Notes under the pieces: generated by a model | Told to the model about the DNA's origin: nothing | The model's input: the letters and a program-made list of their open reading frames with translations, nothing else | The model's database searches: none | Part shown: one piece after another, positions 35,915 to 51,099 of the stretch | Layout: each line of letters starts with the position of its first letter | Position numbering within the stretch: position 1 is the first letter of the stretch | IMG/VR virus record: IMGVR_UViG_3300007171_000012 | Direction: 5' to 3' (one strand) | DNA length: 62,719 bases | From: an uncultured virus (IMG/VR IMGVR_UViG_3300007171_000012) | Taxonomy: Duplodnaviria > Heunggongvirae > Uroviricota > Caudoviricetes | Translations under genes and position numbers: made by a program

Positions 35915-36195
35915 TGCCATTAGTAAAGATTGACCCGAATGATATTTTTCGGTATGTAGTTGGAAATACTACTATTGATCCTATTGAGGCTCAAATCAAT
36001 AAGCGTTACGAAGTTTTTGATGAGTTTATATACGATCACGAATCCAAAACTAAAATTAACCAGTCGAAAGATTTCGTAAATTTTTCAAAGAAGATTTCTA
36101 ATCTTCGTAAAATGTCTGAATCTTTAGCTCGGCAATTTATTGTTGATCGTTGTGAAGAACTTTCAAAAATGAAGATTGATGTTGATTTGGGTTGA
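35914..36195 (+). CDS. hypothetical protein
   Basis: Translationally coupled ORF. Confidence 0.6.
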   Translation: MPLVKIDPNDIFRYVVGNTTIDPIEAQINKRYEVFDEFIYDHESKTKINQSKDFVNFSKKISNLRKMSESLARQFIVDRCEELSKMKIDVDLG

Positions 36196-36995
36196 TGAAT
36201 AAAAAAGTGGCTTTCATTGCTTTGACAAATTCTTCTTTTAATAAAGAAAATTTGATGGAGCGCTTCTTTTCTAAAGAGCATTCTGATAAATATAATCTTT
36301 ATATTCATAATAAAAATCCTATTCTCAGCGATTTTTTCAAAAAGTTTGAGATACCAAGTGAATACAAAGTCGAAACCCAATGGGGCAAATATTCTTTAGT
36401 GTTGGCTACCGTCAGGCTTTTAATGTTTGCTTTACAAAATCCAGAAAATGAAAAATTTGTTTTAATCAGTGAAAGCCACTGTCCTCTTTACGGAATGCAG
36501 AAAATGCATTCTATTATTTTTGATCGCTATCCTATTTTGTCTTTTAGCAATCAACCCAAGGAAGAATCTTGGTCTTTATCTAGGCTTGATGCTCTTATAA
36601 AAGATAAGGGCAGAAATCCATTCGATAAATCTCACGCCAAATTTGTTTCTCAGTGGTTCGTTTGTGATAGAAAATCGGCAGAAGTTTTTGTAAAAAACGA
36701 AATCAAATTTCGCAAATTTTTTAATCTTGATAAATTATGTTTCCCCGATGAAATTTATTTTCATTTGATGGCTCGGCATTTTAATTTGCCAGTTCAGTAT
36801 AAAAATAATTGCCATTTTAATTGGTATTTAAAATCATCAAAATATTTGGTAAATTCTGGGCATCGAGAAAAGCCAAAAACATATTGCAAAATAACCAATC
36901 GAACAATTGACGTTTTTCGCGAAAAAAGTGATTGCATCTTTTTTAGAAAGATCTATAATGGCACCATCTTGGACGAAGAATATCTATTGCAATGA
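36195..36995 (+). CDS. GT14 (core-2/I-branching beta-1,6-GlcNAc transferase-like) protein
   Basis: KVAF, LYIH, T.WG.YSLV.A...L...AL......FVLISE...PL, SQW, PDE.YF. Confidence 0.8.
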   Translation: MNKKVAFIALTNSSFNKENLMERFFSKEHSDKYNLYIHNKNPILSDFFKKFEIPSEYKVETQWGKYSLVLATVRLLMFALQNPENEKFVLISESHCPLYGMQKMHSIIFDRYPILSFSNQPKEESWSLSRLDALIKDKGRNPFDKSHAKFVSQWFVCDRKSAEVFVKNEIKFRKFFNLDKLCFPDEIYFHLMARHFNLPVQYKNNCHFNWYLKSSKYLVNSGHREKPKTYCKITNRTIDVFREKSDCIFFRKIYNGTILDEEYLLQ

Positions 36996-37642
36996 TTGTC
37001 AAACCAATTTCAAAAAAAATCGCAAACGCAGTTGTATCAAATAAACATTATTCTAGGAGGCTTGGAATCTTTTGGGAAGGATTTGGTCTTTATAAAGATG
37101 ATGTTTTAATTGGAGTTTGTTGTTTTGGTCAGCCCTCTGCGGCAATTCAAAAACACGCTTTTAAAAATAGAGATTTCCGTCTTTACGAGTTGACTCGTCT
37201 TGTTGTTGATTCTGGTCATAAGAACGCAGCTTCTTTTTTGATTTCTCAATCTTTCAAACTTCTTTCTGCAAAGCCCTGCGCAATTGTAAGCTATGCAGAT
37301 TCGGCTCATGGTCATTCTGGCGTTGTCTATCAAGCAACAAATTGGATATATACAGGCGCTACTTTATCGCATGACAAACTTTATGTTGTCGATGGCATTC
37401 CTACCCACCCAATTACTCTTCGTGATAAATTGGGCATAACAAATCCTGCTCAATGGGCAACTCAAAACGGCATTGAACGAATCTCTCCAAAACCAAAGCA
37501 TAGATACTTTTATTTTCTTGGCAATAAAAAAGAGCAAAAGATCATGAAATCTGCGCTTGCATATTCTCAAATTTCTGATTATCCAAAATCAGAGAAAACT
37601 CTCTATGACGCAGGAGATAAAAACTGCGCAGAATACCTATGA
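36992..37642 (+). CDS. Mom-like DNA base modification protein (GNAT fold)
   Basis: HYS, GV..FG.P, ELTRL, NAAS..IS, SYAD...GH.G.VYQATNW.YTG, KHRY. Confidence 0.78.
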   Translation: MIVKPISKKIANAVVSNKHYSRRLGIFWEGFGLYKDDVLIGVCCFGQPSAAIQKHAFKNRDFRLYELTRLVVDSGHKNAASFLISQSFKLLSAKPCAIVSYADSAHGHSGVVYQATNWIYTGATLSHDKLYVVDGIPTHPITLRDKLGITNPAQWATQNGIERISPKPKHRYFYFLGNKKEQKIMKSALAYSQISDYPKSEKTLYDAGDKNCAEYL

Positions 37643-38175
37643 ACATATTAAAAGGAACTAAAACATATTTGATCGGTCCAATGCAATACGGCGATGGTCG
37701 ATTGTGGCGTGAAGATATTGCTGATTTCTTGAAAAATATTGGCGTAACGTATTTTGATCCTTATAAAAAACCATTTATTAATGCTCCAGAAGAAGACGAG
37801 AACATTCATGACCGAATGTTTGAATTGATGAAAAGTGGAGAATACGATGAAGTCGCTCAACATTTTAAGCAAGTTAGATCCTTTGATTTGTCAATGGTTG
37901 ATCGCAGCGATTTTATTATTTGCTATTTAAATCCAAAAATTCCAACTTATGGAACCGTCGAAGAACTTTCTTGGGCTGTTCGCATGAAAAGGCCAGTTTT
38001 TATTGTTGTCGAGGGCGGCAAAGTGAATACGCCTCTTTGGGTATTAGGAATGTTGCCTCATAAATACATTTACGATTCTTTTGAAGAAGTAAAAAAAGTC
38101 TTGACAAATATTGATTCTGGTATTAAATCAATTGACTCCGATAGATGGAGATTATTTAAACAAGAACTGCGATGA
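37639..38175 (+). CDS. nucleoside 2-deoxyribosyltransferase-like protein
   Basis: TYL.GPM....WR, FDP, DL..VDRSD, GT.EEL.WA....PV. Confidence 0.75.
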   Translation: MNILKGTKTYLIGPMQYGDGRLWREDIADFLKNIGVTYFDPYKKPFINAPEEDENIHDRMFELMKSGEYDEVAQHFKQVRSFDLSMVDRSDFIICYLNPKIPTYGTVEELSWAVRMKRPVFIVVEGGKVNTPLWVLGMLPHKYIYDSFEEVKKVLTNIDSGIKSIDSDRWRLFKQELR

Positions 38176-38738
38176 ATATTGTAACTTCAGATCATAAAAC
38201 AACTTTGCTTTTAAATAATGCTTGGCAGCCAATCAATACGGTTACTGCTAGAACCGCATTTACCCATCTTCTGAAGGGCCATGCAACCGCGTTGGATAAA
38301 AATGGAGCATTGTTTCATACTCTAAATTCATGGAATTCATCCGCAGAATTTTACGATGACCAGCCAGTGCTGCGAAGTGCTAAAGCTTGTTGGCCAATTC
38401 CAACAATTATCGTTGTTACGAGCAAGTTTTTTCGCCGTCCTAAAAAGAAGAAATTGAGTCTTTTTGATCTTGCGAAAATTCACGGCTATGTTTGTCAGTA
38501 TTGTCTTACCAAAACTCCTTTGTCTGATTTGACAATTGATCATGTTAAGCCAAAAAGCAAAGGTGGCACAGATGATCACGAAAATCGTGTTCTCGCTTGT
38601 CGCCCTTGCAATACCAAGAAAAGTTCTCACTCTCCTTGGTTTGACGTAAACGGGAAAATTCCTACGGCTCCAGCAATTCCAGCTTTAATGCTGAATGCTC
38701 CAAAGATTCGAAAGGAATGGGAAGGGTTTATACATTAA
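38172..38738 (+). CDS. HNH endonuclease (McrA-like)
   Basis: CQYC...LTIDHV.PKSKGG....N.V.AC..CN.KK. Confidence 0.88.
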   Translation: MNIVTSDHKTTLLLNNAWQPINTVTARTAFTHLLKGHATALDKNGALFHTLNSWNSSAEFYDDQPVLRSAKACWPIPTIIVVTSKFFRRPKKKKLSLFDLAKIHGYVCQYCLTKTPLSDLTIDHVKPKSKGGTDDHENRVLACRPCNTKKSSHSPWFDVNGKIPTAPAIPALMLNAPKIRKEWEGFIH

Positions 38739-38796
38739 TTGAAAAAAAATTGGAAAAAATACATCCAATATTTATAATTTGGTGTAAGAACTTTAA

Positions 38797-38862
38797 ATGA
38801 GATATTTTATTCCATCAACAAAAACCGTGTCACTCGCAAATCGCGAGTGGAATGCGGCATGA
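38797..38862 (+). CDS. putative 21-aa leader peptide MRYFIPSTKTVSLANREWNAA
   Basis: GTGTAA motif 9 nt upstream; stop codon lies in a sequence complementary to the terminator 5' arm. Confidence 0.55.
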   Translation: MRYFIPSTKTVSLANREWNAA

Positions 38863-38892
38863 CGTTGGGGTAAAAAGATCATTGACCTTCCC

Positions 38893-38922
38893 AACCCAGC
38901 CGTCAAAAGCTGGGTTTTTTTT
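38893..38922 (+). terminator. intrinsic terminator of putative attenuator
   Basis: AACCCAGC-cgtcaaaa-GCTGGGTT followed by a T tract. Confidence 0.85.
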
Positions 38923-38951
38923 GTAAAAAAAAAGTTTCTCAAAAAAAGACG

Positions 38952-38979
38952 TTGACAAATTCAGAACGTCTGGTATAGT
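38952..38979 (+). promoter_or_regulatory. sigma70-type promoter for the RNA island
   Basis: TTGACA-N16-TATAGT. Confidence 0.75.
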
Positions 38980-39132
38980 CAAAACATCAACGGCAGCGAG
39001 CGCCTGAAGCCGCTAAAGTCCGAGAGGGAGATTAGGGTGAAACAAACCTACTAAATACAAAAAATCTAAAAGAGGAGTGATCAGTCCCTCTGTGAACGTT
39101 TTTAAGTAAGCGTAACTGATCATTTTTCAAAT

Positions 39133-39209
39133 GCTCTCATCGTCTAGTCGGGCAGGACACATGACTTTCAATCATGAAACGCAGGGTTCGATTCCCGCTG
39201 GGAGTGCCA
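39133..39209 (+). tRNA. tRNA-Glu(TTC)
   Basis: Cloverleaf; CATGA-cttTCaa-TCATG anticodon arm; CCA. Confidence 0.92.
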
Positions 39210-39355
39210 ATTTAGAATATCTAAAAATTCCTCATTGACAATGAGTTGAGTTTGTGATAGGATATTCTATACAGTTTGGAGCTTGCAAGCCCCAACTAAG
39301 TCTGCAAAGACGCAGAGACAGCTATTTATACCTGTCAGCTTGCTAAATTTTCAAT

Positions 39356-39432
39356 CGTGGGTAGGACAAGATGGTTAGTCAGGAGTCTCATAAGCTCTCT
39401 TCTGGGGGATTCAAGCGCCCCACCCGCAACCA
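39356..39432 (+). tRNA. tRNA-Met(CAT), initiator-like
   Basis: C1xA72 mismatch, ctcataa loop, atypical T loop, CCA. Confidence 0.8.
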
Positions 39433-39435
39433 ATT

Positions 39436-39514
39436 TTTGAGTGCTGTTAGATAAGGGATACTTCTTCAACTATTACTTGAAACCAATAAACCCCTTGTCG
39501 CTTGTTGCCTCAAA
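39436..39514 (+). ncRNA. Y RNA-like #1 (short, no tRNA-like module)
   Basis: TTTGAGTGC...TTGCCTCAAA bulged stem, GATACTTC motif; paralog of 51026-51094. Confidence 0.65.
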
Positions 39515-39525
39515 TGATTTTCAAT

Positions 39526-39602
39526 TGGCGGGCATGCAGTAGTGGTGCTGCGCGAGTCTCATAAGCTCGATTGTCTGGGTTCGACTCCCAGCCCTCCTAC
39601 CA
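39526..39602 (+). tRNA. tRNA-CAT (Met or Ile2)
   Basis: CGAG arm with ctcataa loop, GGTTCGACTCC, CCA; mismatched acceptor stem. Confidence 0.8.
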
Positions 39603-39683
39603 ATTTATTGTTAGTGTAAACATAACCATGAAGATCAGGGTTTCGGTCGCCTGATGTAAAAGAAAAGACCGTGCAATTTCAAA

Positions 39684-39753
39684 CGCTCGTTGGAGCCTGT
39701 GCATGTCGCGATCACGGGTAGCCTACAGGTGAAAAACCAAAGGCGAGCGACCA
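39684..39753 (+). ncRNA. orphan CCA-ended hairpin RNA
   Basis: CGCTCGT/GCGAGCG-ACCA acceptor-like stem with CCTGT/ACAGG inner stem; no cloverleaf. Confidence 0.45.
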
Positions 39754-39756
39754 ATT

Positions 39757-39856
39757 TATAAACAAAAAGATCCAGCTTCCGCAGGGCTGGTCGTGGAAGG
39801 CCCGCCTATCTAACAGGGCTGATAGCTTAAATGTCGTTAAAAGCGTTTTGTTTGTA
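39757..39856 (+). ncRNA. structured RNA resembling the 23S rRNA H88 (E-site) region
   Basis: Closing stem TATAAACAAAA/TTTTGTTTGTA; ordered motifs GATCC...GTGGAAGG...GCTTAA...TAAAAG. Confidence 0.45.
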
Positions 39857-39897
39857 GTTTTATTTGATTTTTTATTAAAACGGTGTAATATACTGTT

Positions 39898-40272
39898 GTG
39901 AATACAAAACAAAAAGGAAATATTGGGCTTGGAGTTGCAATTGCATATTTTACTAATCGTTTATTAACAGTTTCTATTCCAATTAACGATTCCCAACCTT
40001 ATGATTTAGTTGTCGAATTTGAAGATAAAAGTCTTCAAAAAATTCAAGTAAAAACAACATCATTTGTTTCTCAATATGGCATACCCTCGGTTGGATTGCG
40101 ATCTACTGGTGGAAATCAAAGTAGAAACTATGCGAAATACTTTGACAAAAATTCTTGCGATTATATTTTCGTTTATGTTTTAAATACAAATAATAGTTAT
40201 TTAATACCTAGTTGCGAATGCAATAAAAATACTATTAACTTGGGAACTAAATTTGAAAAATTTAAAATTTAA
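39898..40272 (+). CDS. free-standing PD-(D/E)XK homing-type endonuclease
   Basis: KG..G...AIA.F.....VS.P..D...YDLVV......KIQVKT; GTGTAA upstream. Confidence 0.8.
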   Translation: MNTKQKGNIGLGVAIAYFTNRLLTVSIPINDSQPYDLVVEFEDKSLQKIQVKTTSFVSQYGIPSVGLRSTGGNQSRNYAKYFDKNSCDYIFVYVLNTNNSYLIPSCECNKNTINLGTKFEKFKI

Positions 40273-40273
40273 A

Positions 40274-40365
40274 GGGTTCTAACAATAAGAATAGCTGGTG
40301 CTGTTAGGAAGCTGTAACCTTCCTCCCATTAGGGCAAGGAGTTCGATTCTGCCTAGAACCCACCA
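40274..40365 (+). tRNA. tRNA-Tyr(GTA), atypical D and T arms
   Basis: GGGTTCT/AGAACCC-ACCA, GGAAG-ctgtaac-CTTCC, variable arm. Confidence 0.75.
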
Positions 40366-40374
40366 ATTTTTTAT

Positions 40375-40466
40375 GGAAGTGTGGCAGAGCGGTCAATTGC
40401 ACTATCTTGGAAAGATAGAGGTCGCCAAATGGTGGCCCGTAGGTTCAAATCCTACCGCTTCCGCCA
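40375..40466 (+). tRNA. tRNA-Ser(GGA)
   Basis: Type II cloverleaf, G73, CCA. Confidence 0.93.
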
Positions 40467-40477
40467 ATTTTTTTAAT

Positions 40478-40555
40478 GGGGCTGTATCGGAACTGCCTTC
40501 TAAGCAGTGGCACCGTAAGGGAACGATGCAGGTTCGAATCCTGCCAGCCCCGCCA
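40478..40555 (+). tRNA. tRNA-Arg(TCT)-like lacking the D arm, with long variable region
   Basis: GGGGCTG/CAGCCCC-GCCA; only TATCGGA before ACTGC-cttctaa-GCAGT; canonical T arm. Confidence 0.7.
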
Positions 40556-40556
40556 T

Positions 40557-40916
40557 TTATTTTTCAAAAAAATGCCTTGTTCTATGACACATGCAACAAA
40601 GCAAAGCGCATTTATTTACTTCTTCAATACAACTTGATAAAGAAATCTTTCTCATTCTTTCCCAAACCATATCTTTTTGTTTCGGATCTTTGTGGTGGAA
40701 ATCGAAAAGATAATAATTTTGATTTGTCGCAACCAATTTACAATCTTCGCATTCAGATCCCTTATGGTCGATCATGTCGAGTTTGCGCTGAATCCAGCGG
40801 TCGCGGCAGTAGTTATTAAAACATTTTTTACAAAGAGAATTAGTTCGATTTTCTTTTCCTTTGCTGTAGAAGCAATTATCTGATTTTTCTTCTTTACAAG
40901 TGCTACAAATTTTCAT
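40557..40916 (-). CDS. HNH endonuclease (free-standing)
   Basis: CxxC...CxxC, G..C..C, FDFHH.DP..K, KCALLC..CHR.RH. Confidence 0.85.
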   Translation of the reverse strand: MKICSTCKEEKSDNCFYSKGKENRTNSLCKKCFNNYCRDRWIQRKLDMIDHKGSECEDCKLVATNQNYYLFDFHHKDPKQKDMVWERMRKISLSSCIEEVNKCALLCCMCHRTRHFFEK

Positions 40917-40961
40917 ATAAGTATTTACACTTGCTTAGTAGCAAAAAGACTAATTTTTTAT

Positions 40962-41051
40962 GGGTGTGTGGTCGAGTGGTTTATGGCGTCGGTCTTGAAA
41001 ACCGAAGGTGGTGAAAGCTGCCCGTGGGTTCAAATCCTACCGCACCCGCCA
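40962..41051 (+). tRNA. tRNA-Ser(TGA)
   Basis: Type II cloverleaf, CCA. Confidence 0.93.
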
Positions 41052-41060
41052 ATTTTCAAT

Positions 41061-41137
41061 CCCTGTCTGGTGTAAGTGGTCTGCACGATTCGCTGAAGAC
41101 GAGTAGGATGCCTGATCGAAACGGGCGACAGGGGCCA
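41061..41137 (+). tRNA. tRNA-Phe(GAA)
   Basis: ATTCG-ctgaaga-CGAGT; T loop ATCGAAA; CCA. Confidence 0.85.
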
Positions 41138-41245
41138 ATTTTTCAATTGACATTCATCTGAAAAGAGCCTATAGTGAACGCAACAGTAAGTCACATGCTT
41201 CGGCAGACTATGATAGCGGGCAAATCACATGTGATGAATATCAAA

Positions 41246-41320
41246 CGGGGTGAAGCTTTAATGGTGAAGCAGCAGGCTTTTAACTTGCAGAACTGGGATC
41301 GTTACCCAGCGCCCTGACCA
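41246..41320 (+). tRNA. tRNA-Lys(TTT)
   Basis: GCAGG-cttttaa-CTTGC; T loop ATCGTTA; CCA. Confidence 0.88.
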
Positions 41321-41328
41321 ATTTTTAT

Positions 41329-41405
41329 GCAACAAAAGCCACAGCGGACGGGCATCTGACTCTTACTCAGCTATCGTGTGGGTTCAACTCCCACTTGTTG
41401 CACCA
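41329..41405 (+). tRNA. tRNA-Lys(CTT)
   Basis: CTGA-ctcttac-TCAG; CCA. Confidence 0.82.
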
Positions 41406-41413
41406 TTTTCAAA

Positions 41414-41489
41414 TCCCAAGTAGCACAGCGGTAGTTGCGACTGGCTGTTAACCAGTATGTCGGTGGTTCGATCCCACCCTTGGGAGCCA
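41414..41489 (+). tRNA. tRNA-Asn(GTT)
   Basis: Canonical cloverleaf, CCA. Confidence 0.93.
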
Positions 41490-41496
41490 ATTTAAT

Positions 41497-41577
41497 TGTG
41501 GGAAGCGAATTATAGCACGATCAACAATTTCTCTTGCAAGAATGATCGGAGTGGTGAAAGTCCCTGTCTCACAGCCA
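41497..41577 (+). ncRNA. degenerate tRNA-like CCA-ended RNA
   Basis: TGTGGGA/TCTCACA-GCCA; extended CGATCA/TGATCG arm; no canonical D or T loops. Confidence 0.5.
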
Positions 41578-41585
41578 ATTTTTAC

Positions 41586-41659
41586 GGTCCATAAGCATTA
41601 TGGCGATGCACCCTCCTTGTAAGTGGGAGATGTCAGTTCGATTCTGACATGGGCCTCCA
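41586..41659 (+). tRNA. tRNA-Thr(TGT)
   Basis: Cloverleaf, cttgtaa loop, CCA. Confidence 0.9.
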
Positions 41660-41671
41660 TTTTTAAAAGAT

Positions 41672-41809
41672 TTATAGTGGTGACATGAGTTGGTTACTTC
41701 TATTCTAAAGACGAGGCGCAGGTTCGAATCCTGCCGCAACTGCCCATAGGTGAGAGCGTAGCTCAGTGGTTAGAGCGCGAAAAATACCAAATCAGAACAT
41801 TCCCTATAA
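41672..41809 (+). ncRNA. YrlA-type Y RNA #2 (permuted tRNA-like module)
   Basis: TTATAGTGG...TTCCCTATAA stem, GTTACTTC motif; T arm GCAGGTTCGAATCCTGC precedes D arm TAGCTCAGTGGTTAGAGC. Confidence 0.8.
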
Positions 41810-41813
41810 TAAT

Positions 41814-41888
41814 TGGACTATAGCTCAGAGGCAGAGCGCACGCCCGATAAGCGTGAAGTCGAGATTTCGAAATTCTCTAGTCCAACCA
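41814..41888 (+). tRNA. tRNA-Ile(GAT)
   Basis: CACGC-ccgataa-GCGTG (C33); CCA. Confidence 0.88.
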
Positions 41889-41947
41889 ATTTTTTCTTGA
41901 CAGTCACCAAAACGCCTCTTAATATGCGAACCAGTTTGGTGCTTAAT

Positions 41948-42022
41948 AGGCGCGTAGCTGAGTGGTTGTAGCACCTCCTTGATAAGGTGGAGACGCAGGT
42001 TCAATCCCTGCCGCGCCTACCA
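41948..42022 (+). tRNA. tRNA-Ile(GAT)
   Basis: Cloverleaf, ttgataa loop, CCA. Confidence 0.88.
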
Positions 42023-42039
42023 AATTTTCAAAAAACAGG

Positions 42040-42067
42040 TTGACAAAATCAGAAATATCTGCATAAT
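42040..42067 (+). promoter_or_regulatory. sigma70-type promoter of the large ncRNA
   Basis: TTGACA-N16-CATAAT. Confidence 0.7.
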
Positions 42068-42074
42068 CAATCAC

Positions 42075-43030
42075 ATCGCCGCGACGAACTAAGAGTTCTT
42101 CAAAGCGATCTTGGGAAAACAAAGAGTTTCCTTCGTAAAAAGTTCTTTAATATCATAAAAAATTTGCCCGCTTGGGGGCATTACAGGATAATCCAGAAGC
42201 GATTCTGGGAAAGGGATAAGGTTCCTACACCGCCCACTAATTTAGTTCGCTAAGTTAGCCCACCAAGCAAGCCGAGAGATACGACAATATAAGCCATTAA
42301 AACTTATGTTGTTGAAGCCTACGGGTCGAAGAGAGTAAAACAGTGAGGTCAACGATGTAGCTGGTTCTGAAAGGAAAACTCAAATGGGTCTGAAAGCATG
42401 AATCTCAAAGGGTAGTCATAAGTCAGAGTAGAGATACAAAGGCGAATGGCATGCTGAGAGGTTGCCTGAGAGTCAAATCGAGGGTAGTCTTGACTGCGAT
42501 GAAAAAGTAGCGATACTGATTCTAGTTGATGTGTTGTATTCTTGATTTTGAGAGATTTTGAGAGCAGCGTGGTTGCGCACATTGACGTAGGTTTCCATTT
42601 ATTTTGCTGGTTCGAGTCCAGCCTCCCCCGCCATCAGAGCATCCAGCTTATGCTTTGACGGGGGGAGTAGCCAAATGGGTAAAGGCAGTTGCATATTAAA
42701 CAACGTATAAATATTAAAAGCAAAAGACGTAACCCCGAACGCTCGAAAATCGACTAAGACAGAAGCGAAAGCAATTCTGTGCGAACCTTGGCTCGCAAAG
42801 CACAAGGCGTTTGATCAGAGAAGGAAATCTTGCAGGACGGCCATCCTCCGAGGTTCTAGAAATGATCGAGTAGAGTAAACGGTAAATCGCAAATGCCAGC
42901 GATTCATAAAATGGCGTCGATGACTGGATACTATCGAGAGGTAGTGGATAAGTAAGGAAATAGTGGCTTGGAATGCTGCTTAATAATCTTATGAAAGACT
43001 GGTCGCCCTAGCCTGTAATCTCAGGGCTTA
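42075..43030 (+). ncRNA. large (~950 nt) structured ncRNA, probably GOLLD-class
   Basis: No credible ORF, purine-rich with many hairpins, own promoter, inside a phage tRNA array, embedded tRNA-like module; class recalled from memory, not searched. Confidence 0.6.
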
Positions 43031-43095
43031 GATAACAATTTTCGATTGACTTCCCGCGCCTCTGATGCAAGCGTAATTCGGGAAGTGTTTTTAAA

Positions 43096-43170
43096 GCGTG
43101 TATCGTATAATGGTTATTATACAACGTTGCCAACGTTGATATGTCAGTTCGATTCTGACTACACGCACCA
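43096..43170 (+). tRNA. tRNA-Gly(GCC)
   Basis: CAACG-ttgccaa-CGTTG; CCA. Confidence 0.92.
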
Positions 43171-43180
43171 ATTTTCATAT

Positions 43181-43278
43181 CGTGCAGTTGCCTAGCTTGG
43201 TAAGGAGCCTGACTTGGAATCAGGTAGCGGGGACAAGAGTGTTTACCGTCGTGGGTTCGAATCCCACCTGCGCGACCA
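43181..43278 (+). tRNA. tRNA-Pro(TGG) with long variable arm
   Basis: CCTGA-cttggaa-TCAGG, ~26-nt variable region, canonical T arm, CCA. Confidence 0.8.
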
Positions 43279-43286
43279 ATTTTAAA

Positions 43287-43364
43287 TAGGTATTAGCGTA
43301 ACTTGGCTATCGCGCTACATTTGGGATGTAGAGATTATGGGTTCAAATCCCATATACCTAACCA
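43287..43364 (+). tRNA. tRNA-Pro(TGG)
   Basis: CTACA-tttggga-TGTAG; CCA. Confidence 0.9.
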
Positions 43365-43371
43365 ATTTATT

Positions 43372-43451
43372 TGCCTCGGCATCGGATGCTTGGTGATCCA
43401 CGCGCTAATCGCGGAAATGTTAATGCGGTTCGAATCCGCAGCTAGGCACCA
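43372..43451 (+). ncRNA. tRNA-like RNA with non-canonical anticodon arm
   Basis: D arm GGAT/ATCC, CGCG-ctaat-CGCG, perfect T arm TGCGGTTCGAATCCGCA, CCA. Confidence 0.6.
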
Positions 43452-43465
43452 GATTTCAAAAAAAC

Positions 43466-43540
43466 GGCCTGATCATATAACGGTTATTATGCACCCTTGG
43501 TATGGGTGATACTGGAGTTCGACTCTCCATCGGGCCTCCA
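43466..43540 (+). tRNA. tRNA-Thr(GGT)
   Basis: CACCC-ttggtat-GGGTG; CCA. Confidence 0.9.
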
Positions 43541-43553
43541 AACAATTTTCAAT

Positions 43554-43628
43554 GGGCGGTTAGTATAACGGAAGAATACTTGAATACGAATCAAGAGACG
43601 GCGGGTTCAATTCCCCCACTGCCTACCA
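43554..43628 (+). tRNA. tRNA-Arg(ACG)
   Basis: CTTGA-atacgaa-TCAAG; CCA. Confidence 0.85.
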
Positions 43629-43645
43629 GTTTTAATAAATTTTAA

Positions 43646-43720
43646 GGTCCATTAGTGTAAAGGAAGCATCACTAGATTGTCAATCTTGAGGAAGGGGATC
43701 GTTCCCCCTATGGACCGCCA
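43646..43720 (+). tRNA. tRNA-Asp(GTC)
   Basis: ttgtcaa loop, G73, T loop ATCGTTC, CCA. Confidence 0.87.
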
Positions 43721-43810
43721 ATTTCGCCGTAAAGCACAAGAGGTTAGTAACGCGCCTGATTACTGATTATGATGCGAGAGATCGGGCTTAGGGTTCTCAC
43801 GGCAATATAT

Positions 43811-43886
43811 GGGCGCACATGTTCCTTGGGGGCGATTGTCACTTGCAATGACGATGTGGCGAGTTCAATTCTCGTTGTGTCCACCA
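43811..43886 (+). tRNA. tRNA-Ala(TGC)
   Basis: G3:U70, cttgcaa loop, CCA; weak D arm. Confidence 0.82.
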
Positions 43887-44093
43887 TTTTTTTTACTTTA
43901 AAAAGCCGTGTTGGAGTGGCAACCAACTAGCCATAGGTGAATAAAATAGGCGAAGAGTAGCGGGTTGTTCCGCAAAACACTGTGGGTAATCCCCGCGATA
44001 GCAGTAGCGTTATTGGTGAATATATGGGAGTTTTTTGTTTGACAAAACGTAGATCATATGCTCTACTCTTCGGAGTAACCAACTGTCTAATTT

Positions 44094-44168
44094 GGGGCTA
44101 TGGCGCAATGGTAGCGCAGATCCTTTGCAAGGATAAGGTTGAGAGTTCGAATCTCTCTAGCTCCACCA
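44094..44168 (+). tRNA. tRNA-Ala(TGC)
   Basis: GGGGCTA/TAGCTCC-ACCA, canonical cloverleaf. Confidence 0.93.
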
Positions 44169-44177
44169 AATTTTCAA

Positions 44178-44302
44178 TGCGGTCTAGTCAAAATAAAACC
44201 GAATTAAAAGGCATTAAATCTCGGAATGCCCAAGAAGAAGGAGATTACGGGGTAATTCGGAGTCCCCAGCAAAGGCGTAAGTGACGATTCGCCACCGCAC
44301 CA
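44178..44302 (+). ncRNA. CCA-ended RNA with two predicted pseudoknots
   Basis: TGCGGT/ACCGCA-CCA; GGCATT/AATGCC with AATCTC/GAGATT; GGGG/CCCC with CCGAATTA/TAATTCGG. Confidence 0.6.
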
Positions 44303-44311
44303 ATTTCAAAC

Positions 44312-44385
44312 ATGCCGTTCGTCTAATGGTAAGACTACTGCCTCCAAAACAGAAAACGCGGGTTCGATTCCTGCACGGTATGCCA
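44312..44385 (+). tRNA. tRNA-Trp(CCA)
   Basis: ctccaaa loop, G73, CCA. Confidence 0.87.
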
Positions 44386-44393
44386 ATTTTTAT

Positions 44394-44469
44394 CGCGTCG
44401 TGGGGAGAATGGCTATCTCACTGCCTGCAAAGCAGATTCATGCTGGTTCAAGTCCAGTCGGCGCGTCCA
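44394..44469 (+). tRNA. tRNA-Cys(GCA)
   Basis: CTGC-ctgcaaa-GCAG, U73, CCA. Confidence 0.88.
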
Positions 44470-44507
44470 ATTTCTATTACTCATGAAATTCGTGTAATAA
44501 TGAGTAT

Positions 44508-44927
44508 ATGTCAAAAAAAGACTTAAAAGAAAAAAAATGCAAGAATTGTGGAGAGGTGAAATCTACTAAAGACTTCTATCCTCAAAAAGCTTATAATAAT
44601 GGTATAGTTTATGATACTTGGGATTGCTATTGCAAATCTTGTAGATTAGAAACTTCAGCCGAGCGAAGAAGGGCTTTAAAAAGAAAAGCTATAGAATATC
44701 TTGGTGGAAAATGCGCTGATTGTGGAGAATCAAGAGATATTCCATCTATTTATGATTTTCACCATTTAGATCCTAGCAAAAAAGATTTTTCAATTGGCAA
44801 ACAAGCAAAAAAATTTGATTCTGTGAAGAAAGAACTCGACAAATGTGTTCTTCTTTGTGCAAACTGTCACAGGATAAGACATTCTCAAAATCAAAAGGAG
44901 GTTGGCTTAGAAGCAGCCACGGATTGA
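44508..44927 (+). CDS. HNH endonuclease (free-standing)
   Basis: GGKCADCG...YDFHHLDPS.KDF...KCVLLCANCHR.RH. Confidence 0.87.
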   Translation: MSKKDLKEKKCKNCGEVKSTKDFYPQKAYNNGIVYDTWDCYCKSCRLETSAERRRALKRKAIEYLGGKCADCGESRDIPSIYDFHHLDPSKKDFSIGKQAKKFDSVKKELDKCVLLCANCHRIRHSQNQKEVGLEAATD

Positions 44928-45119
44928 GAATCCTCACGATTTATCGTGACCTTTAAAGAGTAGGACGAAGCACCCAATCCGTGCGAAATGCTAAATAATG
45001 TCGGGCCGTAAAGTGGCATATATTAGTGATGTGCTGTGGGGAAAATGTGGATAGTGATAAGGCACCCCCGAAACGGTAAGGCATATTCTCCTTTTGGCGT
45101 AGTAGCACACTTTTGATTT
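44888..45119 (+). ncRNA. mimic of the 23S rRNA GTPase-associated centre (H43/H44, L11 site) with two insertions
   Basis: AGGAGGTTGGCTTAGAAGCAGCCAC[ins]CCTTTAAAGAGT[ins]GCGTAGTAGCACAC, closed by AAATCAAAAG/CTTTTGATTT. Confidence 0.8.
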
Positions 45120-45123
45120 ATTT

Positions 45124-45585
45124 TTAATTTTGGGCTACGCTGCGACAAAGCTGAATAAATTCATCTGGCAACAGATTATGTTTGGCTTTATTCACGGCGG
45201 AAGTTGTCAAGACTAAGTTATCTAGATTTGAAGATCCTCCTCGGCTCTTTGGAATCTTATGGTCTAGTGAATAAGAAGAGGGAATAGATAAATTTATTGG
45301 TTGACTTGTAAAGTAACATGTCGGATTATCTCCGATATGCTCCAACAAATCAGCTAAAGAAAAGTCAATCGTGTTGCCGTATTTTTTGAAAGCTGTCATT
45401 TTACTTAATAAGTGCTGATTATGATAGCTATCTTTAAACCACGCTCTCTGTTTGGTTTTTCGTTCAGGGTTTAAATGATAGATAACAGTATAATAAGAAC
45501 ATCCTATTATTTCGGAGATTTCTTTATGATTGTGACCGAGATTTTTAAGTCTTTGCATTTCTGATAAATCGTATTTTAAATCCAT
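45124..45585 (-). CDS. HNH endonuclease with N-terminal HTH
   Basis: EISEIIGCS..TV.YHL; SLDHKIPKSRGG....DNL......N.AK. Confidence 0.82.
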   Translation of the reverse strand: MDLKYDLSEMQRLKNLGHNHKEISEIIGCSYYTVIYHLNPERKTKQRAWFKDSYHNQHLLSKMTAFKKYGNTIDFSLADLLEHIGDNPTCYFTSQPINLSIPSSYSLDHKIPKSRGGSSNLDNLVLTTSAVNKAKHNLLPDEFIQLCRSVAQN

Positions 45586-45629
45586 AAAAGTAATTACACT
45601 TGTTGTAATGAAAATAGAAATTTTACAAA

Positions 45630-45704
45630 GGGGAATTAGCTGAGTGGTAAAGCAACTCGTTTACACCGAGGAGATCAGCGGTTCGAATCCGTTATTCCCT
45701 ACCA
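45630..45704 (+). tRNA. tRNA-Val(TAC)
   Basis: CTCG-tttacac-CGAG; CCA. Confidence 0.92.
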
Positions 45705-45712
45705 ATTTTCAT

Positions 45713-45790
45713 GCGTCTGTAGCCCAACTGGCAGCAGGCAATAGATTAAGGGTCTATACAGTGTGGGTTCGAATCCCACCAGACGCACCA
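45713..45790 (+). tRNA. tRNA-Leu(AAG), short variable loop
   Basis: ATAGA-ttaaggg-TCTAT; CCA. Confidence 0.82.
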
Positions 45791-45804
45791 ATCTACAAAT
45801 TCAA

Positions 45805-46029
45805 ATGGCAAATAAAAACACATTAATAACCACCTCATGGTGTGGACCGTGCAAAATAATCAAAGACTTTTTAGCGAAAAATCCAAAAGATATTATTTTG
45901 ATTGACGCAGATGAAAATCAAGAGTATTGTAAAGACAATAACGTAAGAACAGTTCCAACTTTAATTGCGGATGATAAGCGCTTGACTGGCGCAAAAGATA
46001 TTATTGATTACCTTTTAACTCTCTCTTAA
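45805..46029 (+). CDS. thioredoxin/glutaredoxin-like protein
   Basis: WCGPC, VRTVPTL. Confidence 0.85.
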   Translation: MANKNTLITTSWCGPCKIIKDFLAKNPKDIILIDADENQEYCKDNNVRTVPTLIADDKRLTGAKDIIDYLLTLS

Positions 46030-46045
46030 AGAGAAACTTTTCATG

Positions 46046-46165
46046 AAATAGGATCAACTTTGACGGAGTAATTAACCGTGAGTGTTTGGATAGACAACGG
46101 AAGATGTAAGGTTCGATTCCCAACAGGCTCTGGTGAGTATGCATTTTCTAGGAACGGCGTGAAAT
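46046..46165 (+). ncRNA. orphan structured RNA with a T-loop motif
   Basis: GATCA/TGATC closing stem, internal GGTTCGATTCC, 3' T tract. Confidence 0.4.
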
Positions 46166-46199
46166 CCCAGACTGATCTGATTTTTTTGTATTTTATAAT

Positions 46200-46277
46200 G
46201 GCTGCGTAGTCCAACTGGTAGGAGACGTTTGACTTAGAATCAAAACAGTGTCGGTTCGAATCCGACCGCAGCTACCA
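46200..46277 (+). tRNA. tRNA-Leu(TAG), short variable loop
   Basis: TTTGA-cttagaa-TCAAA; CCA. Confidence 0.9.
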
Positions 46278-46319
46278 TTTTTCGCTTGCTTTGTAAATTA
46301 TTTTTGGCATGATCAAAGC

Positions 46320-46667
46320 ATGACGACAATCAAGGATTCAAATGGCGTTGAGTTAACTTATGATGAAACAATCAATGTTGGTGATATTGTTACCGCTTAT
46401 CACAGTGGGTATCATAAAATTACAGAGATAACCCCACGCTACGAAATAGGCGGCAGTCCTCGCGTTCCATTATTTACATATGTTCTTGTTGCTAAAGCTG
46501 ATGGCACGCTTGCAAAAAGAAGCTCTATTACTAAAGAATGTGATGCGAGCTTTTGCCGCCATGTTAAACAAGAACTAGCAAAAACTATCACTAAAAAAAA
46601 GGAAGAACTCGCTCGTCTTGAATCTCTTCAAATTATCTTCGAAAATAATAATGGCTCGTTACGCTAA
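46320..46667 (+). CDS. hypothetical protein
   Basis: ORF with ATG at 46320; 3' end overlaps a tRNA-Leu. Confidence 0.6.
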   Translation: MTTIKDSNGVELTYDETINVGDIVTAYHSGYHKITEITPRYEIGGSPRVPLFTYVLVAKADGTLAKRSSITKECDASFCRHVKQELAKTITKKKEELARLESLQIIFENNNGSLR

Positions 46668-46729
46668 TTGGCAGTGCGGCAATACTCAAAATATTGTGGT
46701 TTTCAGTTCGAATCTGAAACGAGCTACCA
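46653..46729 (+). tRNA. tRNA-Leu(CAA), short variable loop
   Basis: CAATA-ctcaaaa-TATTG; CCA. Confidence 0.87.
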
Positions 46730-46742
46730 TTTAAAATAAAAA

Positions 46743-46772
46743 AAAGACCGTCTTGTAAAAGGCGGTCTTTTT
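46743..46772. terminator. bidirectional intrinsic terminator
   Basis: AAAGACCGTC-ttgtaaaa-GGCGGTCTTT flanked by A and T tracts between convergent genes. Confidence 0.8.
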
Positions 46773-46792
46773 ATATAGATTGATTGTCAATA

Positions 46793-47200
46793 TCAGTTTA
46801 AAGTCAAAAGATACTTGGTCTTATTAAGAGAGCCAAGAATTTCATCCCTAATATTTAAAAGATCAGTATTGGAAAAATAACGCTCCCAAGATTGAAGCAC
46901 TGAAATATTATCATTTAAAAACGAAACGAATGCCGCAGAATCAAGGTTGACGAAACCCATTCCAGCACCGCTGAAATCGAAGCGTCCATAAGCTCCTTGG
47001 TAAGTTTCCACAAACTCGTCAATAGACTCGCTCAAAGCGCTGTAAAGCTCGCCAAAAGCATGATGCTGGGCAAATGAGTAAGTTTGCCAATGGAAAATTT
47101 TAAATTGAATCTGTAATTGAATCAACTTGGAAACAATTCCAGATTGACCCATTGCGGCGATAGACTCAGAAAAGTCTAGTTCAAGTGATTTTTTATTCAT
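46793..47200 (-). CDS. ferritin/Dps-like four-helix bundle protein
   Basis: KIFHWQT.S.A.H.AF.ELY......D.FVE..QG.YGR; N.RDEIL..LNK.KYLLTL. Confidence 0.75.
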   Translation of the reverse strand: MNKKSLELDFSESIAAMGQSGIVSKLIQLQIQFKIFHWQTYSFAQHHAFGELYSALSESIDEFVETYQGAYGRFDFSGAGMGFVNLDSAAFVSFLNDNISVLQSWERYFSNTDLLNIRDEILGSLNKTKYLLTLN

Positions 47201-47283
47201 AAAATATGTTACACTTTTTTCTGTCAAATTCTACAGATTTGTATTGACTATGACGCAAAATGGTGTAGAATGATTTCATAAAC

Positions 47284-47361
47284 GGCTCCATAGCCCAACT
47301 GGCAGCAGGCAACAGACTTAAAATCTGTAAAGTGTGGGTTCGAATCCCACTGGAGCTACCA
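47284..47361 (+). tRNA. tRNA-Leu(TAA), short variable loop
   Basis: ACAGA-cttaaaa-TCTGT; CCA. Confidence 0.9.
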
Positions 47362-47379
47362 ACTTTCATTATAATTAAA

Positions 47380-47452
47380 AGGGGTGTAGCAGAACGGTTA
47401 ATGCGGGCCTCTCATAAAGGTTAGATAATGGGTTCAACTCCCATCGCCCCTA
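47380..47452 (+). tRNA. tRNA-CAT (Met or Ile2), no encoded CCA
   Basis: AGGGGTG/CGCCCCT, ctcataa loop; 3' end overlaps the HNH stop codon. Confidence 0.85.
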
Positions 47453-47986
47453 TTTCATATTTTTATCTGGATTATGAATTTCAAAATGGCAATTAGCGCA
47501 TAGTAATTTACATTTTCTAAATTCTTTTAAAATTGATTCCCAATTTGTATTGGAGAGAATTCTTGAGTCTAATGAAAAAGATTTGTTTTGTGGGTCATTA
47601 TGATGAAATTGCAGGGCAGAAGAATTTTTTTTGTAACCGCAATTGGAGCATTTTCCTCCAGCCATTTTTATTAATTCTAATTTTCTACTAAGTGCTTTGT
47701 TTTTTTGACGTTCATTTGTATTAGGCTGGCTATAATAAGTATTTTTTGATTTACACTCAATTGAGCAATAAAACTTTTGTTGACCAATTAATTGTTTTGA
47801 GCAGCACTTGCAGCTTCTTCCATTTAATAATGTTTTTAAATCTTTTGCTTGAGGAGGATTGTTGGTATTTAACCCCAATTTTCTCAACCAATATCTAATA
47901 GTTGTTTGAGAACAATCCATTTCTTTTGCTATTTGGTAAGTAGATAAATTTTTTGAAATTAAATCTTGCAATTTTTCATAGTTCAT
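47450..47986 (-). CDS. HNH endonuclease with N-terminal HTH
   Basis: STYQIAKEM.CSQTTIRYWL; GGKCSNCG...LQFHH.DP..K...KCKLLCANCH.E.H. Confidence 0.87.
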   Translation of the reverse strand: MNYEKLQDLISKNLSTYQIAKEMDCSQTTIRYWLRKLGLNTNNPPQAKDLKTLLNGRSCKCCSKQLIGQQKFYCSIECKSKNTYYSQPNTNERQKNKALSRKLELIKMAGGKCSNCGYKKNSSALQFHHNDPQNKSFSLDSRILSNTNWESILKEFRKCKLLCANCHFEIHNPDKNMK

Positions 47987-48032
47987 ATATATTATTACAC
48001 AATTCATAACAACTTGTGAACTATTAAATAAT

Positions 48033-48136
48033 GGGAGTGTTGCTAATGTTGGCCATAGGGCGAAACTTATAATCTCGTAGAGCAACGGCTAGATAAGCCG
48101 TTAGTAACGTGGGTTCGATTCCCACCACTCCTACCA
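48033..48136 (+). tRNA. tRNA-Ile(TAT) with very long variable arm
   Basis: GGGAGTG/CACTCCT-ACCA, cttataa loop, AACGGCT/AGCCGTT variable stem. Confidence 0.75.
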
Positions 48137-48148
48137 CTTTCAAACATC

Positions 48149-48397
48149 ATGGAAATACATGCAACGCAACATTTAAAAGTTCAAATTTCAGATCAAGAGC
48201 AGAAAAGAATTGTTCTGGAGTATTTTTATTCTAAATTTAAATGGAAAAAAGATTATTTTATTAAAAATGGTCAAGTGATGGAAGATGTAGAATATTCTAC
48301 TTCTCATCGTTGGACAGATGAAGAATTTGTGCGGGAAGCTCAAGAAGATGATTATTTCGTGGCTGGAATCATCAAATTGATTAATAAATTGCCTTGA
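48149..48397 (+). CDS. hypothetical protein
   Basis: ORF. Confidence 0.6.
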   Translation: MEIHATQHLKVQISDQEQKRIVLEYFYSKFKWKKDYFIKNGQVMEDVEYSTSHRWTDEEFVREAQEDDYFVAGIIKLINKLP

Positions 48398-48427
48398 TTT
48401 ATTCGAGATTAACATTACTATCATTTG

Positions 48428-49075
48428 ATGAAATTCAATTTTCTTAAAGATTGTGGTGAGAATTTTTGCAAGTTCTTTGATTGGACTGTTGATTATCTCT
48501 GTCAACATAAAAAGAAAATTGTAATCGCCAATAGCCGAAACATAGATCTCGGAGATTCTAAATGTTCAGGATGGTGCGACGGAGAAACAATTACCGTCGC
48601 CAAAAAAAATCCATTATTTGAGCAGGTTTATTGTCATGAATTTTCTCACATGACTCAATGCATCGAAAAGCATGCCGTCTGGAAAGATGAATATGAGTTT
48701 TGGAAGCATTTAGACAAGCAAAATCTTTGCCCCAAAAATTGGGCGGCAGTAATGGAGGTTATAGCTTTAGAACATGATTGCGAAAAGAGATCTTTAGCGT
48801 TTGGTAAAAAATGGAAACTTTTCGATACCGAAAAGTATGCGCAGCAAGCTAATCTTTATTTGTTTTATTATCAATACGTTTATTTAAAACAAAAATGGAT
48901 CGACTCGACCTCCATCTATCATCCAATTCTCTTGGGGAAAATGCCCAAAAAGATTGCTCCTCTTTCGTCTTTTAATTCAATTAATATGCCTCTGATGGCA
49001 TTATTTGACGAATGCCTTGAAAAAAAGGGAAAATTCTACAAAAAAGGCTTTACATGGAATAAATTGAAGCTATAA
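48428..49075 (+). CDS. HExxH metallopeptidase-like protein
   Basis: HEFSH...ALE.DCE. Confidence 0.55.
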   Translation: MKFNFLKDCGENFCKFFDWTVDYLCQHKKKIVIANSRNIDLGDSKCSGWCDGETITVAKKNPLFEQVYCHEFSHMTQCIEKHAVWKDEYEFWKHLDKQNLCPKNWAAVMEVIALEHDCEKRSLAFGKKWKLFDTEKYAQQANLYLFYYQYVYLKQKWIDSTSIYHPILLGKMPKKIAPLSSFNSINMPLMALFDECLEKKGKFYKKGFTWNKLKL

Positions 49076-49082
49076 TAAGTGC

Positions 49083-49595
49083 ATGAGCGTTTACGTCATT
49101 GGCGATCCACATCTTGGACATCAAAACATTGCTAAATATCGCAAGTTTGTATCTTCTTCGGAAGATAATACTCGCCTCATCCAAGAAGATTGGACTAAGC
49201 GCATCAACAAAAATGATGTCGTTTATGTTCTTGGCGATGCAGCATTCGATTCCCATTCTTTAGCTTTGTTTGGCAATTTGAAGGGTCGTAAGATTTTGAT
49301 TAAAGGCAATCATGATGACTTGGTTGACACGCGCGATCAATTGAATGTTTTCGAAGAAATTCACGGAATCATCAAATACAAAGGAATGTGGCTCAGTCAT
49401 TGCCCGATTCATCCTGATGAATTGCGCAAGTGCAAACTGAACGTTCACGGTCATGTTCATATGCATACAATCATGAAAGGTTGGGGGCCGTGGCGTAAAG
49501 AAGATCCTCGTTATGTGAATACTTGTGTTGATGTGGTTTACCCTAAATTTGGGACTTGTTTTTTAACACTTGATTATTTGAAGAGTTTGGTGTAA
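49083..49595 (+). CDS. calcineurin-like metallophosphoesterase
   Basis: D.HLGH, LGD, GNHD, SH.P, HGHVH. Confidence 0.9.
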   Translation: MSVYVIGDPHLGHQNIAKYRKFVSSSEDNTRLIQEDWTKRINKNDVVYVLGDAAFDSHSLALFGNLKGRKILIKGNHDDLVDTRDQLNVFEEIHGIIKYKGMWLSHCPIHPDELRKCKLNVHGHVHMHTIMKGWGPWRKEDPRYVNTCVDVVYPKFGTCFLTLDYLKSLV

Positions 49596-49603
49596 TATAA
49601 AAT

Positions 49604-50233: not shown

Positions 50234-50387
50234 ATTTGTAAGTCGCTGCGTATCGCAGATTTCTTCAGAATACAAAGATAATAAGCAAGCAGTAGCAATT
50301 TGCTACAATCAATTCAAAGAAGCAAAAGCATCAGCAGATGGTGTCGTAGATCTCGGTAATGATGAAATGCTTATTTTAAAAGATTAA
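50190..50387 (+). CDS. small conserved phage protein (PIP.P...E....FVSRC...QAVAICY)
   Basis: ORF with a motif common in phage small proteins. Confidence 0.65.
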   Translation: MPPIPTPKNKEKRNEFVSRCVSQISSEYKDNKQAVAICYNQFKEAKASADGVVDLGNDEMLILKD

Positions 50388-50388
50388 T

Positions 50389-50782: not shown

Positions 50783-50787
50783 ATTTT

Positions 50788-50897
50788 GGGCATGACATGG
50801 TGTAGGTGAGGGTTCGATTCCCTCTCGGTCCACTCGACGGGCTGAATGGTAGTAGTGCGGCGGCACTCTTTGGGTTCGATTCCCAACATGTCCACCA
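50788..50897 (+). ncRNA. CCA-ended RNA with two T arms and an Ala-type acceptor stem
   Basis: GGGCATG/CATGTCC-ACCA; GAGGG-TTCGATT-CCCTC and TTGGG-TTCGATT-CCCAA. Confidence 0.7.
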
Positions 50898-50903
50898 ATT
50901 AAT

Positions 50904-51094: not shown

Positions 51095-51099
51095 CTTTT

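Follow-up and report, generated by a model that had tools for sequence, protein, structure and literature searches.

A possible ribosome-mediated attenuator, opened by a GTGTAA gene-start signal, at the border of the tRNA island of an uncultured tailed phage

The leaders of the trp, his, phe and leu operons are ribosome-mediated transcription attenuators of amino-acid operons. Term-seq has added attenuators of antibiotic-resistance genes that contain an upstream ORF and respond to stalled ribosomes (Listeria lmo0919, Bacillus vmlR and bmrB-bmrCD). Phage tRNA islands have been discussed as counter-measures to host defences that target tRNAs, and to our knowledge little is known about how the expression of these islands is controlled. 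In the portions of the literature covered, no leader-peptide attenuator before a phage tRNA cluster was found. Two related observations have been reported: rnTrpL of Sinorhizobium is a small RNA derived from an attenuator (PMC6614838), and the efficiency of a terminator depends on where the ribosome stands relative to it, also where no dedicated antiterminator exists, the distance from stop codon to terminator tuning termination (PMC4824070).

The leader unit described here lies in a stretch of 62,719 nucleotides (the window) from an uncultured large tailed phage, with a GC content of 31-45% and PHROG matches to a DNA polymerase, a Lon-like protease, a J-type tail fibre, RIIA and a DnaB-like helicase. 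Across the leader region, the IMG/VR record G001 does not differ from the window. Public sequencing runs containing the phage are labelled as aquatic, groundwater, freshwater and drinking-water metagenomes, and four of them (X4, X6, X7 and X17) were compared at the leader region. Directly upstream of the leader (36192-38738) lie four overlapping genes co-oriented with it, which encode a Branch-type glycosyltransferase (36192-36995), a Mom-family protein (36992-37642), a nucleoside 2-deoxyribosyltransferase-like (Ndt-like) protein (37639-38175) and a free-standing HNH endonuclease (38172-38738; Pfam HNH, E = 4e-14). The combination of glycosyltransferase, Mom-family and Ndt-like proteins suggests a DNA hypermodification module. 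Downstream, 30 tRNAs covering nearly all amino acids and a tmRNA were called by ARAGORN between 39133 and 53380; Rfam confirmed the tmRNA and gave 28 tRNA matches. Among 60 related loci gathered via the Ndt-like protein, the leader was found in one, L002 (blastn and nhmmer; the next best nhmmer match had E = 0.16), the Ndt-like protein of which is 84% identical to that of the window, with a background DNA identity of 78-81%.

We tentatively read the leader unit as a ribosome-mediated attenuator, that is, a conditional intrinsic terminator, and give this reading somewhat less than an even chance. As in the trp, his, phe and leu attenuators, a short ORF lies close to a promoter, antiterminator and terminator helices are mutually exclusive, and a 1:2 helix is possible in the window; in our simulations, as in those systems, a ribosome at the stop codon would favour termination and one stalled within the ORF would favour read-through. 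Unlike those leaders, the phage leader lacks runs of regulatory codons (its 21 residues are of 15 kinds), precedes tRNAs and ncRNAs rather than biosynthetic enzymes, and is followed by a strong second promoter after the terminator. The Rfam model Trp_leader scored 17.3 bits against a gathering threshold of 41 (E = 0.68), and no Rfam leader or riboswitch family (Trp_leader, T-box and others) reached its gathering threshold in the leader region. With lmo0919, vmlR and bmrB-bmrCD the phage leader would share a leader ORF that lacks amino-acid specificity and a terminator relieved by a general slowing of ribosomes, as proposed here; unlike the phage leader, those systems sense ribosomes with a bound drug and lie ahead of a resistance gene, whereas RNA genes lie downstream in the phage. 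Like rnTrpL (PMC6614838) and Hfq-type sRNAs, the leader is predicted to give a transcript of ~135 nt that runs from a promoter to a U-tailed terminator and has a conserved 5' part, and the terminated RNA could act in trans; unlike them, it had no target in the window and no Rfam family, and its conserved 5' part is a gene-start module. As with ordinary post-stop terminators (PMC4824070), the leader hairpin and U-tract start 30 nt after the stop codon; unlike these, the leader carries a rival helix, equally strong, that overlaps the 5' arm in both lineages and would be superfluous for a plain terminator.

The elements that the initial annotation had named in the leader, that is, a GTGTAA motif, a 21-codon ORF, a hairpin within it, a pairing of its stop region with the terminator, and the terminator itself, were all found; they and the promoters treated below lie on the plus strand. 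GTGTAA (38782-38787), a 9-nt spacer, an ATG and codons 2-7 form a conserved 5' block (38782-38818), which begins 44 nt past the end of the HNH gene. The mini-ORF opened by this ATG (the leader cistron, 38797-38862) has 21 codons, ends in TGA and encodes a peptide with 15 different amino acids (MRYFIPSTKTVSLANREWNAA). Shine-Dalgarno sequences are essentially missing in this phage (median anti-SD duplex of -0.2 kcal/mol, with 8% at -4 or lower, for 50 ORFs of at least 120 aa). Of the 35 GTGTAA sites in the window, 12 have an ATG at +8 and 3 at +9, any other distance occurring at most twice, and 12 of these 15 GTGTAA-N8/9-ATG sites open ORFs of 50 aa or more; the pattern returns in L002 (4 of 8 sites). 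Judged by this positional pattern, GTGTAA-N8/9-ATG is the gene-start signal of the phage lineage, in place of Shine-Dalgarno, and it may work either as an RNA signal akin to an RBS or as a promoter of mRNAs with a short leader or none. A GTGTAA start signal was not described in the portions of the literature covered. About 15 starts are marked in this way (for example, 10185, 33717 on the minus strand, 44492, 49590, 53408, 54619, 55398 and 55991, with further ones on the minus strand at 40930, 45599, 47214 and 48000), and at 49590 the TAA of GTGTAA doubles as the stop codon of the upstream gene.

The GTGTAA-N9-ATG at the start of the mini-ORF is unchanged in L002, and because it matches the gene-start signal of the phage, the ATG looks like a real start and the mini-ORF may be translated. 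A gene-start motif with an ATG at the canonical spacing is expected by chance ~0.002 times in 155 nt, as estimated from the GTGTAA counts. The leader may also have its own promoter: a sigma-70-like pattern match (TTGGAA-17-TATAAT, 10/12) was located at 38750-38778, its -10 hexamer ending 3 nt before GTGTAA, and in L002 the corresponding place is taken by TTGAAA-16-TAGAAT (10/12), the second hexamer of which again ends 3 nt before GTGTAA. No repeated-codon run that could be regulatory was found in MRYFIPSTKTVSLANREWNAA or in the L002 peptide MRYFNPSKTIANLSNTEWDVD, and since the island covers nearly all amino acids, matching the leader codons to the phage tRNAs is uninformative; the earlier reading of the codon-diverse leader as a general sensor of tRNA depletion thus gains no support from codon content.

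Within codons 12-18 of the ORF, a central hairpin of 7 bp (38831-38849) is formed by CACTCGC (38831-38837) and GCGAGTG (38843-38849). Variants in the public runs change two of its pairs from Watson-Crick to G.U (38832 A>G in X4, X7 and X17; 38844 C>T also in X7 and X17), and in L002 the hairpin is register-shifted (CC(U)CUCA/UGAG(U)GG). For the relatives in X7 and X17, about 90% identical in the HNH gene, five of the differences listed, three of them synonymous, fall in the ORF (38825 C>A, 38832 A>G, 38844 C>T, 38851 A>G and 38859 A>G), and for 38860-38920 the listed differences comprise nothing but one inserted T. The X17 contig bridges 38753-39063; as an assembled contig it is no evidence on transcripts.

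Comparison with L002 gave an uneven conservation profile. Identity was 35/36 in 38782-38817, 25/42 in codons 8-21, 15/30 from the stop codon to the terminator, 27/30 in the terminator with its T8, and all but 2 positions in the promoter at 38952 and the next ~90 nt. The whole of 38782-38922 aligned without an indel, with indels on both flanks. Conservation of the leader ORF in related phages, which had been put forward as a check, was found in this single orthologue, which keeps the 21 codons and the position of the stop (TAA for TGA). The peptides are identical at 10/21 positions, compared with 164/188 for the HNH protein. As the 19 nucleotide differences in the ORF are distributed 4/10/5 on codon positions 1/2/3, with 11 of the 14 codons from 8 to 21 changed, mostly at position 2, there is no purifying selection on residues 8-21. 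The stop codon appears to matter, since the frame stays open far beyond it in both the window and L002. In a simulation, the open frame and stop would be kept by chance with a probability of 0.15, and ORF retention alone is weak evidence.

Wider searches returned few other candidates. INPHARED blastn with 38100-39700 matched in the tRNA-Glu part only (17 records), in IMG/VR the L002 contig alone matched exact patterns taken from the hairpin, the 5' block and the downstream ncRNA, a search of JGI metagenomes anchored in the downstream ncRNA gave no further relatives, and a genome-contig scan with the promoter had no match. Several hits were discarded: two matches in JGI metagenomes, both inside a P-type ATPase-like gene, and a 21-mer in a Cloacimonadota MAG from the genome-contig scan were chance matches, L004 was not syntenic, and a weak nhmmer match at 12683-12756 is the terminator of an ordinary 76-codon gene. 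The terminator hairpin pattern was found in two extra IMG/VR contigs, L067 and L068, which are unrelated and GC-rich. The CCCAGCCCTCAAAAGCTGGGTTTT hairpin (20-24 nt, L002 version) occurs there exactly, at 1501-1524 on the minus strand of each contig, far above chance and as an ordinary end-of-gene terminator, in L068 again followed by a TTGACA...TATAGT promoter. Either a host-type terminator held in common or a mobile junction of terminator and promoter could account for this recurrence.

The intrinsic terminator (38893-38922) has a stem of eight pairs, five of them G-C (38893-38900/38909-38916), an 8-nt loop (38901-38908) and a run of eight T (38915-38922). The hairpin at 38893-38916 was the top-ranked site in a scan of 36000-55000. 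With a computed energy of -12.3 kcal/mol, where 24 strictly defined terminators average -16.4, it is a weak terminator by prediction, and its loop is large; the L002 counterpart (7254-7275) has -12.2 kcal/mol. The competing helix pairs UGACGUUGGG (38860-38869, overlapping the stop codon) with CCCAG(C)CGUCA (38895-38905, that is, the terminator 5' arm and five loop bases), and this pairing is the minimum free energy (MFE) structure of the segment from stop to loop, with 10 pairs, one bulged C and -14.0 kcal/mol, compared with -12.3 for the terminator alone. The equivalent helix in L002, GCGGGUAAA:UUUGCCC(A)GC, has -11.5 kcal/mol; GCGGGUAAA lies 5-13 nt past the stop, and UUUGCCC(A)GC takes in the terminator 5' arm. 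A GGG:CCC core is common to both helices, from which the helix extends outward into the loop in the window and inward in L002, and the paired nucleotides partly differ. As to conservation of the antiterminator, the other part of the check, a terminator-sequestering helix recurs in L002, while the exact pairing is lost (UGACG/CGUCA to UAAUC/CCUCA).

The excess stability of this helix was assessed against several backgrounds. Shuffles of the 35 nt upstream matched its energy and arm coverage in 13 of 2000 cases for the window and 4 of 2000 for L002, and natural 35-mers of the window did so in 43 of 3000 and 124 of 3000, respectively; these values were obtained only once the pairing in the window had been spotted, and L002, the only unbiased replicate, shares ancestry with it. 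Among 104 hairpin-plus-T-run sites in the window and the 60 loci, a helix with at least 60% of the arm paired reached -14.0 kcal/mol or lower at 2 sites and -11.5 or lower at 6, in a crude set that also takes in tRNA arms and hairpins of coding sequence and counts the window and L002 sites themselves. The 149-nt leader stretch as a whole folds with z = -3.70 (0 of 200 shuffles as good), compared with only -1.72 in L002. Combining strands from the two lineages gave a mixed result on strand co-adaptation: the chimera of window 5' strand and L002 3' strand (-13.4) was as good as the natives, and the reverse chimera had -7.0. In the full-length MFE structure of the window, a further helix joins region 1 (UUUUAUUCCA, 38805-38814) to region 2 (38866-38875). 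With the 5' arm kept unpaired, the state with this helix had -30.5 kcal/mol in the window versus -32.7 for the antiterminator state; in L002 the helix is weak (-19.4 versus -26.8 kcal/mol). Between the two sequences it shows a single double change (38810 T>A with 38870 G>T) as well as two losses.

The effect of ribosome position was explored in a thermodynamic simulation for the window and L002, in which a ribosome with a 30-nt footprint had its A site set on a given codon. In support of the earlier proposal that a ribosome reaching the UGA blocks the antiterminator, the simulated stop-codon footprint abolished the helix in both the window and L002: with the A site on codon 22, no antiterminator pairs remained, and 8 (window) and 7 (L002) terminator pairs were predicted, the L002 antiterminator helix sitting at the edge of the assumed footprint. 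Stalled translation would favour the antiterminator, as had also been proposed, the simulated masking of codons 6-10 (window) or 3-18 (L002) having this effect. The companion claim that absent translation allows read-through failed for the window, the untranslated RNA of which prefers the 38805-38814:38866-38875 helix together with the terminator; the untranslated L002 RNA prefers the antiterminator. In its untranslated state the window resembles a trp-type attenuator, in which no translation gives termination.

If the leader unit is an attenuator, its RNA would originate from the promoter at 38750-38778 or by read-through from the operon of glycosyltransferase, Mom-like, Ndt-like and HNH genes, and would carry the 21-codon ORF with the phage gene-start signal. 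With a ribosome at the stop codon, the footprint would cover 38860-38869, no antiterminator would form, and the hairpin at 38893-38916 with its U8 would halt RNA polymerase; with a ribosome lagging or stalled in the ORF, 38860-38869 would pair with 38895-38905, the 5' arm would be sequestered and the polymerase would read through. The leader elements, their conservation and the greater than expected stability of the alternative helix are present in two lineages; from them we infer that the ORF is translated, that the two structures switch and that a physiological signal is sensed. Because of the start motif, the length constraint and the recurrence of a helix near the terminating ribosome, translation would matter more than the peptide and the terminator would be conditional. 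The support for an attenuator is thin, coming from one orthologue and from moderate p-values that are partly post hoc.

The target of such a switch is limited by the promoters that follow it. A separate sigma-70 promoter downstream of the terminator had been noted at 38952, and it is indeed present (38952-38979, TTGACA-16-TG-TATAGT, 11/12, with A-tracts before it). A distance of 30 nt separates this island promoter from the terminator; its sequence is 100% identical in L002, and run X7, which covers it, has no change there among the differences listed. Four further 11/12 promoters lie within the island (41147, 42040, 49049 and 52985). With these promoters, the proposed gating of ~14 kb of RNA genes is not supported: since the island has its own and internal promoters, the leader could only tune read-through into the first island segment, and with a strong promoter, fully conserved, as close as 30 nt downstream, the island can be expressed without read-through. 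In the attenuator reading, the first part of the island would be transcribed mainly from the promoter at 38952, with read-through as no more than a supplement.

Several features of the island were recorded apart from the leader. The initial annotation had listed Y RNA genes there, and none of the Y RNA families passed its Rfam gathering threshold anywhere in the window; a 516-aa protein encoded within the island near the tmRNA (51451-53001; PHROG 850 'RNA-binding protein', E = 5e-48) could be a candidate for the Ro-like partner that such a listing implied. Two tRNA matches came from Rfam without an ARAGORN call (40478-40552, 43.4 bits; 48033-48133, 38.5 bits), the second of which, at 101 nt, may contain an insertion or intron. 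Between the promoter at 38952 and tRNA-Glu lies an untranslated stretch (38984-39072) with 2 differences from L002, against a background of ~80%; run X7 has 39043 C>T and 39071 A>C here among the differences listed. The stretch had no credible Rfam match (best E = 5.8) and a weak predicted structure (z = -1.93), and it may be a novel ncRNA or else serve as a 5' leader that RNase P processes off. Its counterpart in L002 directly abuts tRNA-Glu; the window has a specific insertion of ~57 nt before tRNA-Glu (39072-39128), with a long perfect hairpin (GAGGAGTGATCAGT...ACTGATCATTTTTC) that L002 is without, and the loose end of the X17 contig at 39063 continues like L002. A second GTGTAA-N8-ATG follows tRNA-Met (39614-39900); it opens an ORF of 8 codons only (39628-39654), followed by ~230 nt of GC-richer untranslated sequence with no counterpart in L002, and may mark another small RNA of the island.

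Three other explanations of the leader were weighed against the attenuator. A stand-alone short gene with a constitutive terminator, the ~135-nt transcript of which would be a trans-acting small RNA or the mRNA of a 21-residue peptide and the alternative helix of which would be incidental, seems to us somewhat unlikely. It would accord with the promoter-like site at an equal offset in the window and L002, with the stable structure (z = -3.70), with the retained N-terminal MRYF.PS, and with a conservation pattern seen in many sRNAs (5' part 35/36, middle 25/42 and 15/30, terminator 27/30). As an sRNA, however, it showed no target complementarity above chance in the window (2 non-self 11-mers versus 3.7 expected) and no significant Rfam match (best ncS025, 21.6 bits against a gathering threshold of 46), and its 36-nt conserved block exceeds usual seeds and coincides with the gene-start signal and ATG; a functional peptide is opposed by the changes in 11 of the 14 codons from 8 to 21, mostly at position 2. 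In neither form would a stand-alone gene account for a terminator-sequestering helix that is more stable than expected in both lineages. That helix is likewise left unexplained if the hairpin is a plain terminator or insulator that ends the upstream operon (36192-38738) and shields the island promoter, with the mini-ORF as a by-product, and so are the 35/36 conservation of 38782-38817, the gene-start motif with an ATG at canonical spacing (~0.002 expected in 155 nt) and the lack of indels. We judge this explanation unlikely, even though the hairpin comes as the first terminator downstream of the four overlapping genes on its strand, A-tracts and an 11/12 promoter follow it, the same hairpin ends ordinary genes in the unrelated L067 and L068 (in L068 again with a TTGACA...TATAGT promoter), and ORF retention could be chance (0.15).

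The conserved block could also act at the level of DNA, as a 36-bp site of protein binding or cleavage, for example, as the recognition site of the adjacent HNH endonuclease. Homing HNH enzymes are found in the tRNA regions of T5-type phages, the HNH gene (Pfam E = 4e-14) ends 44 nt upstream of the block, and conservation is at the nucleotide level, third codon positions included. The HNH gene is present in both genomes, leaving no empty site for comparison, and the block begins exactly with GTGTAA-N9-ATG, which is common to unrelated genes, and a DNA-level site appears to us very improbable indeed.

For the attenuator, a more far-reaching role can be imagined, which we regard as a long shot: the leader of this T5-like freshwater phage may be a sensor of translation stress that is unspecific as to codon, the antiterminator boosting the supply of replacement tRNAs and the 135-nt leader RNA perhaps acting in trans. 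Anticodon nucleases or other tRNA-depleting defences would then slow ribosomes on the mini-ORF, the antiterminator would form, and transcription of the upstream operon would run into the island of ncRNAs and tRNAs. Even if the switch is not real, the GTGTAA-N8-ATG signal is useful for annotation, and the junction of terminator, A-tract and strong promoter marks the 5' border of the island. If it is real, the leader would, as far as the literature covered shows, be the first case in which the supply of phage tRNAs is tied by feedback to the state of translation.
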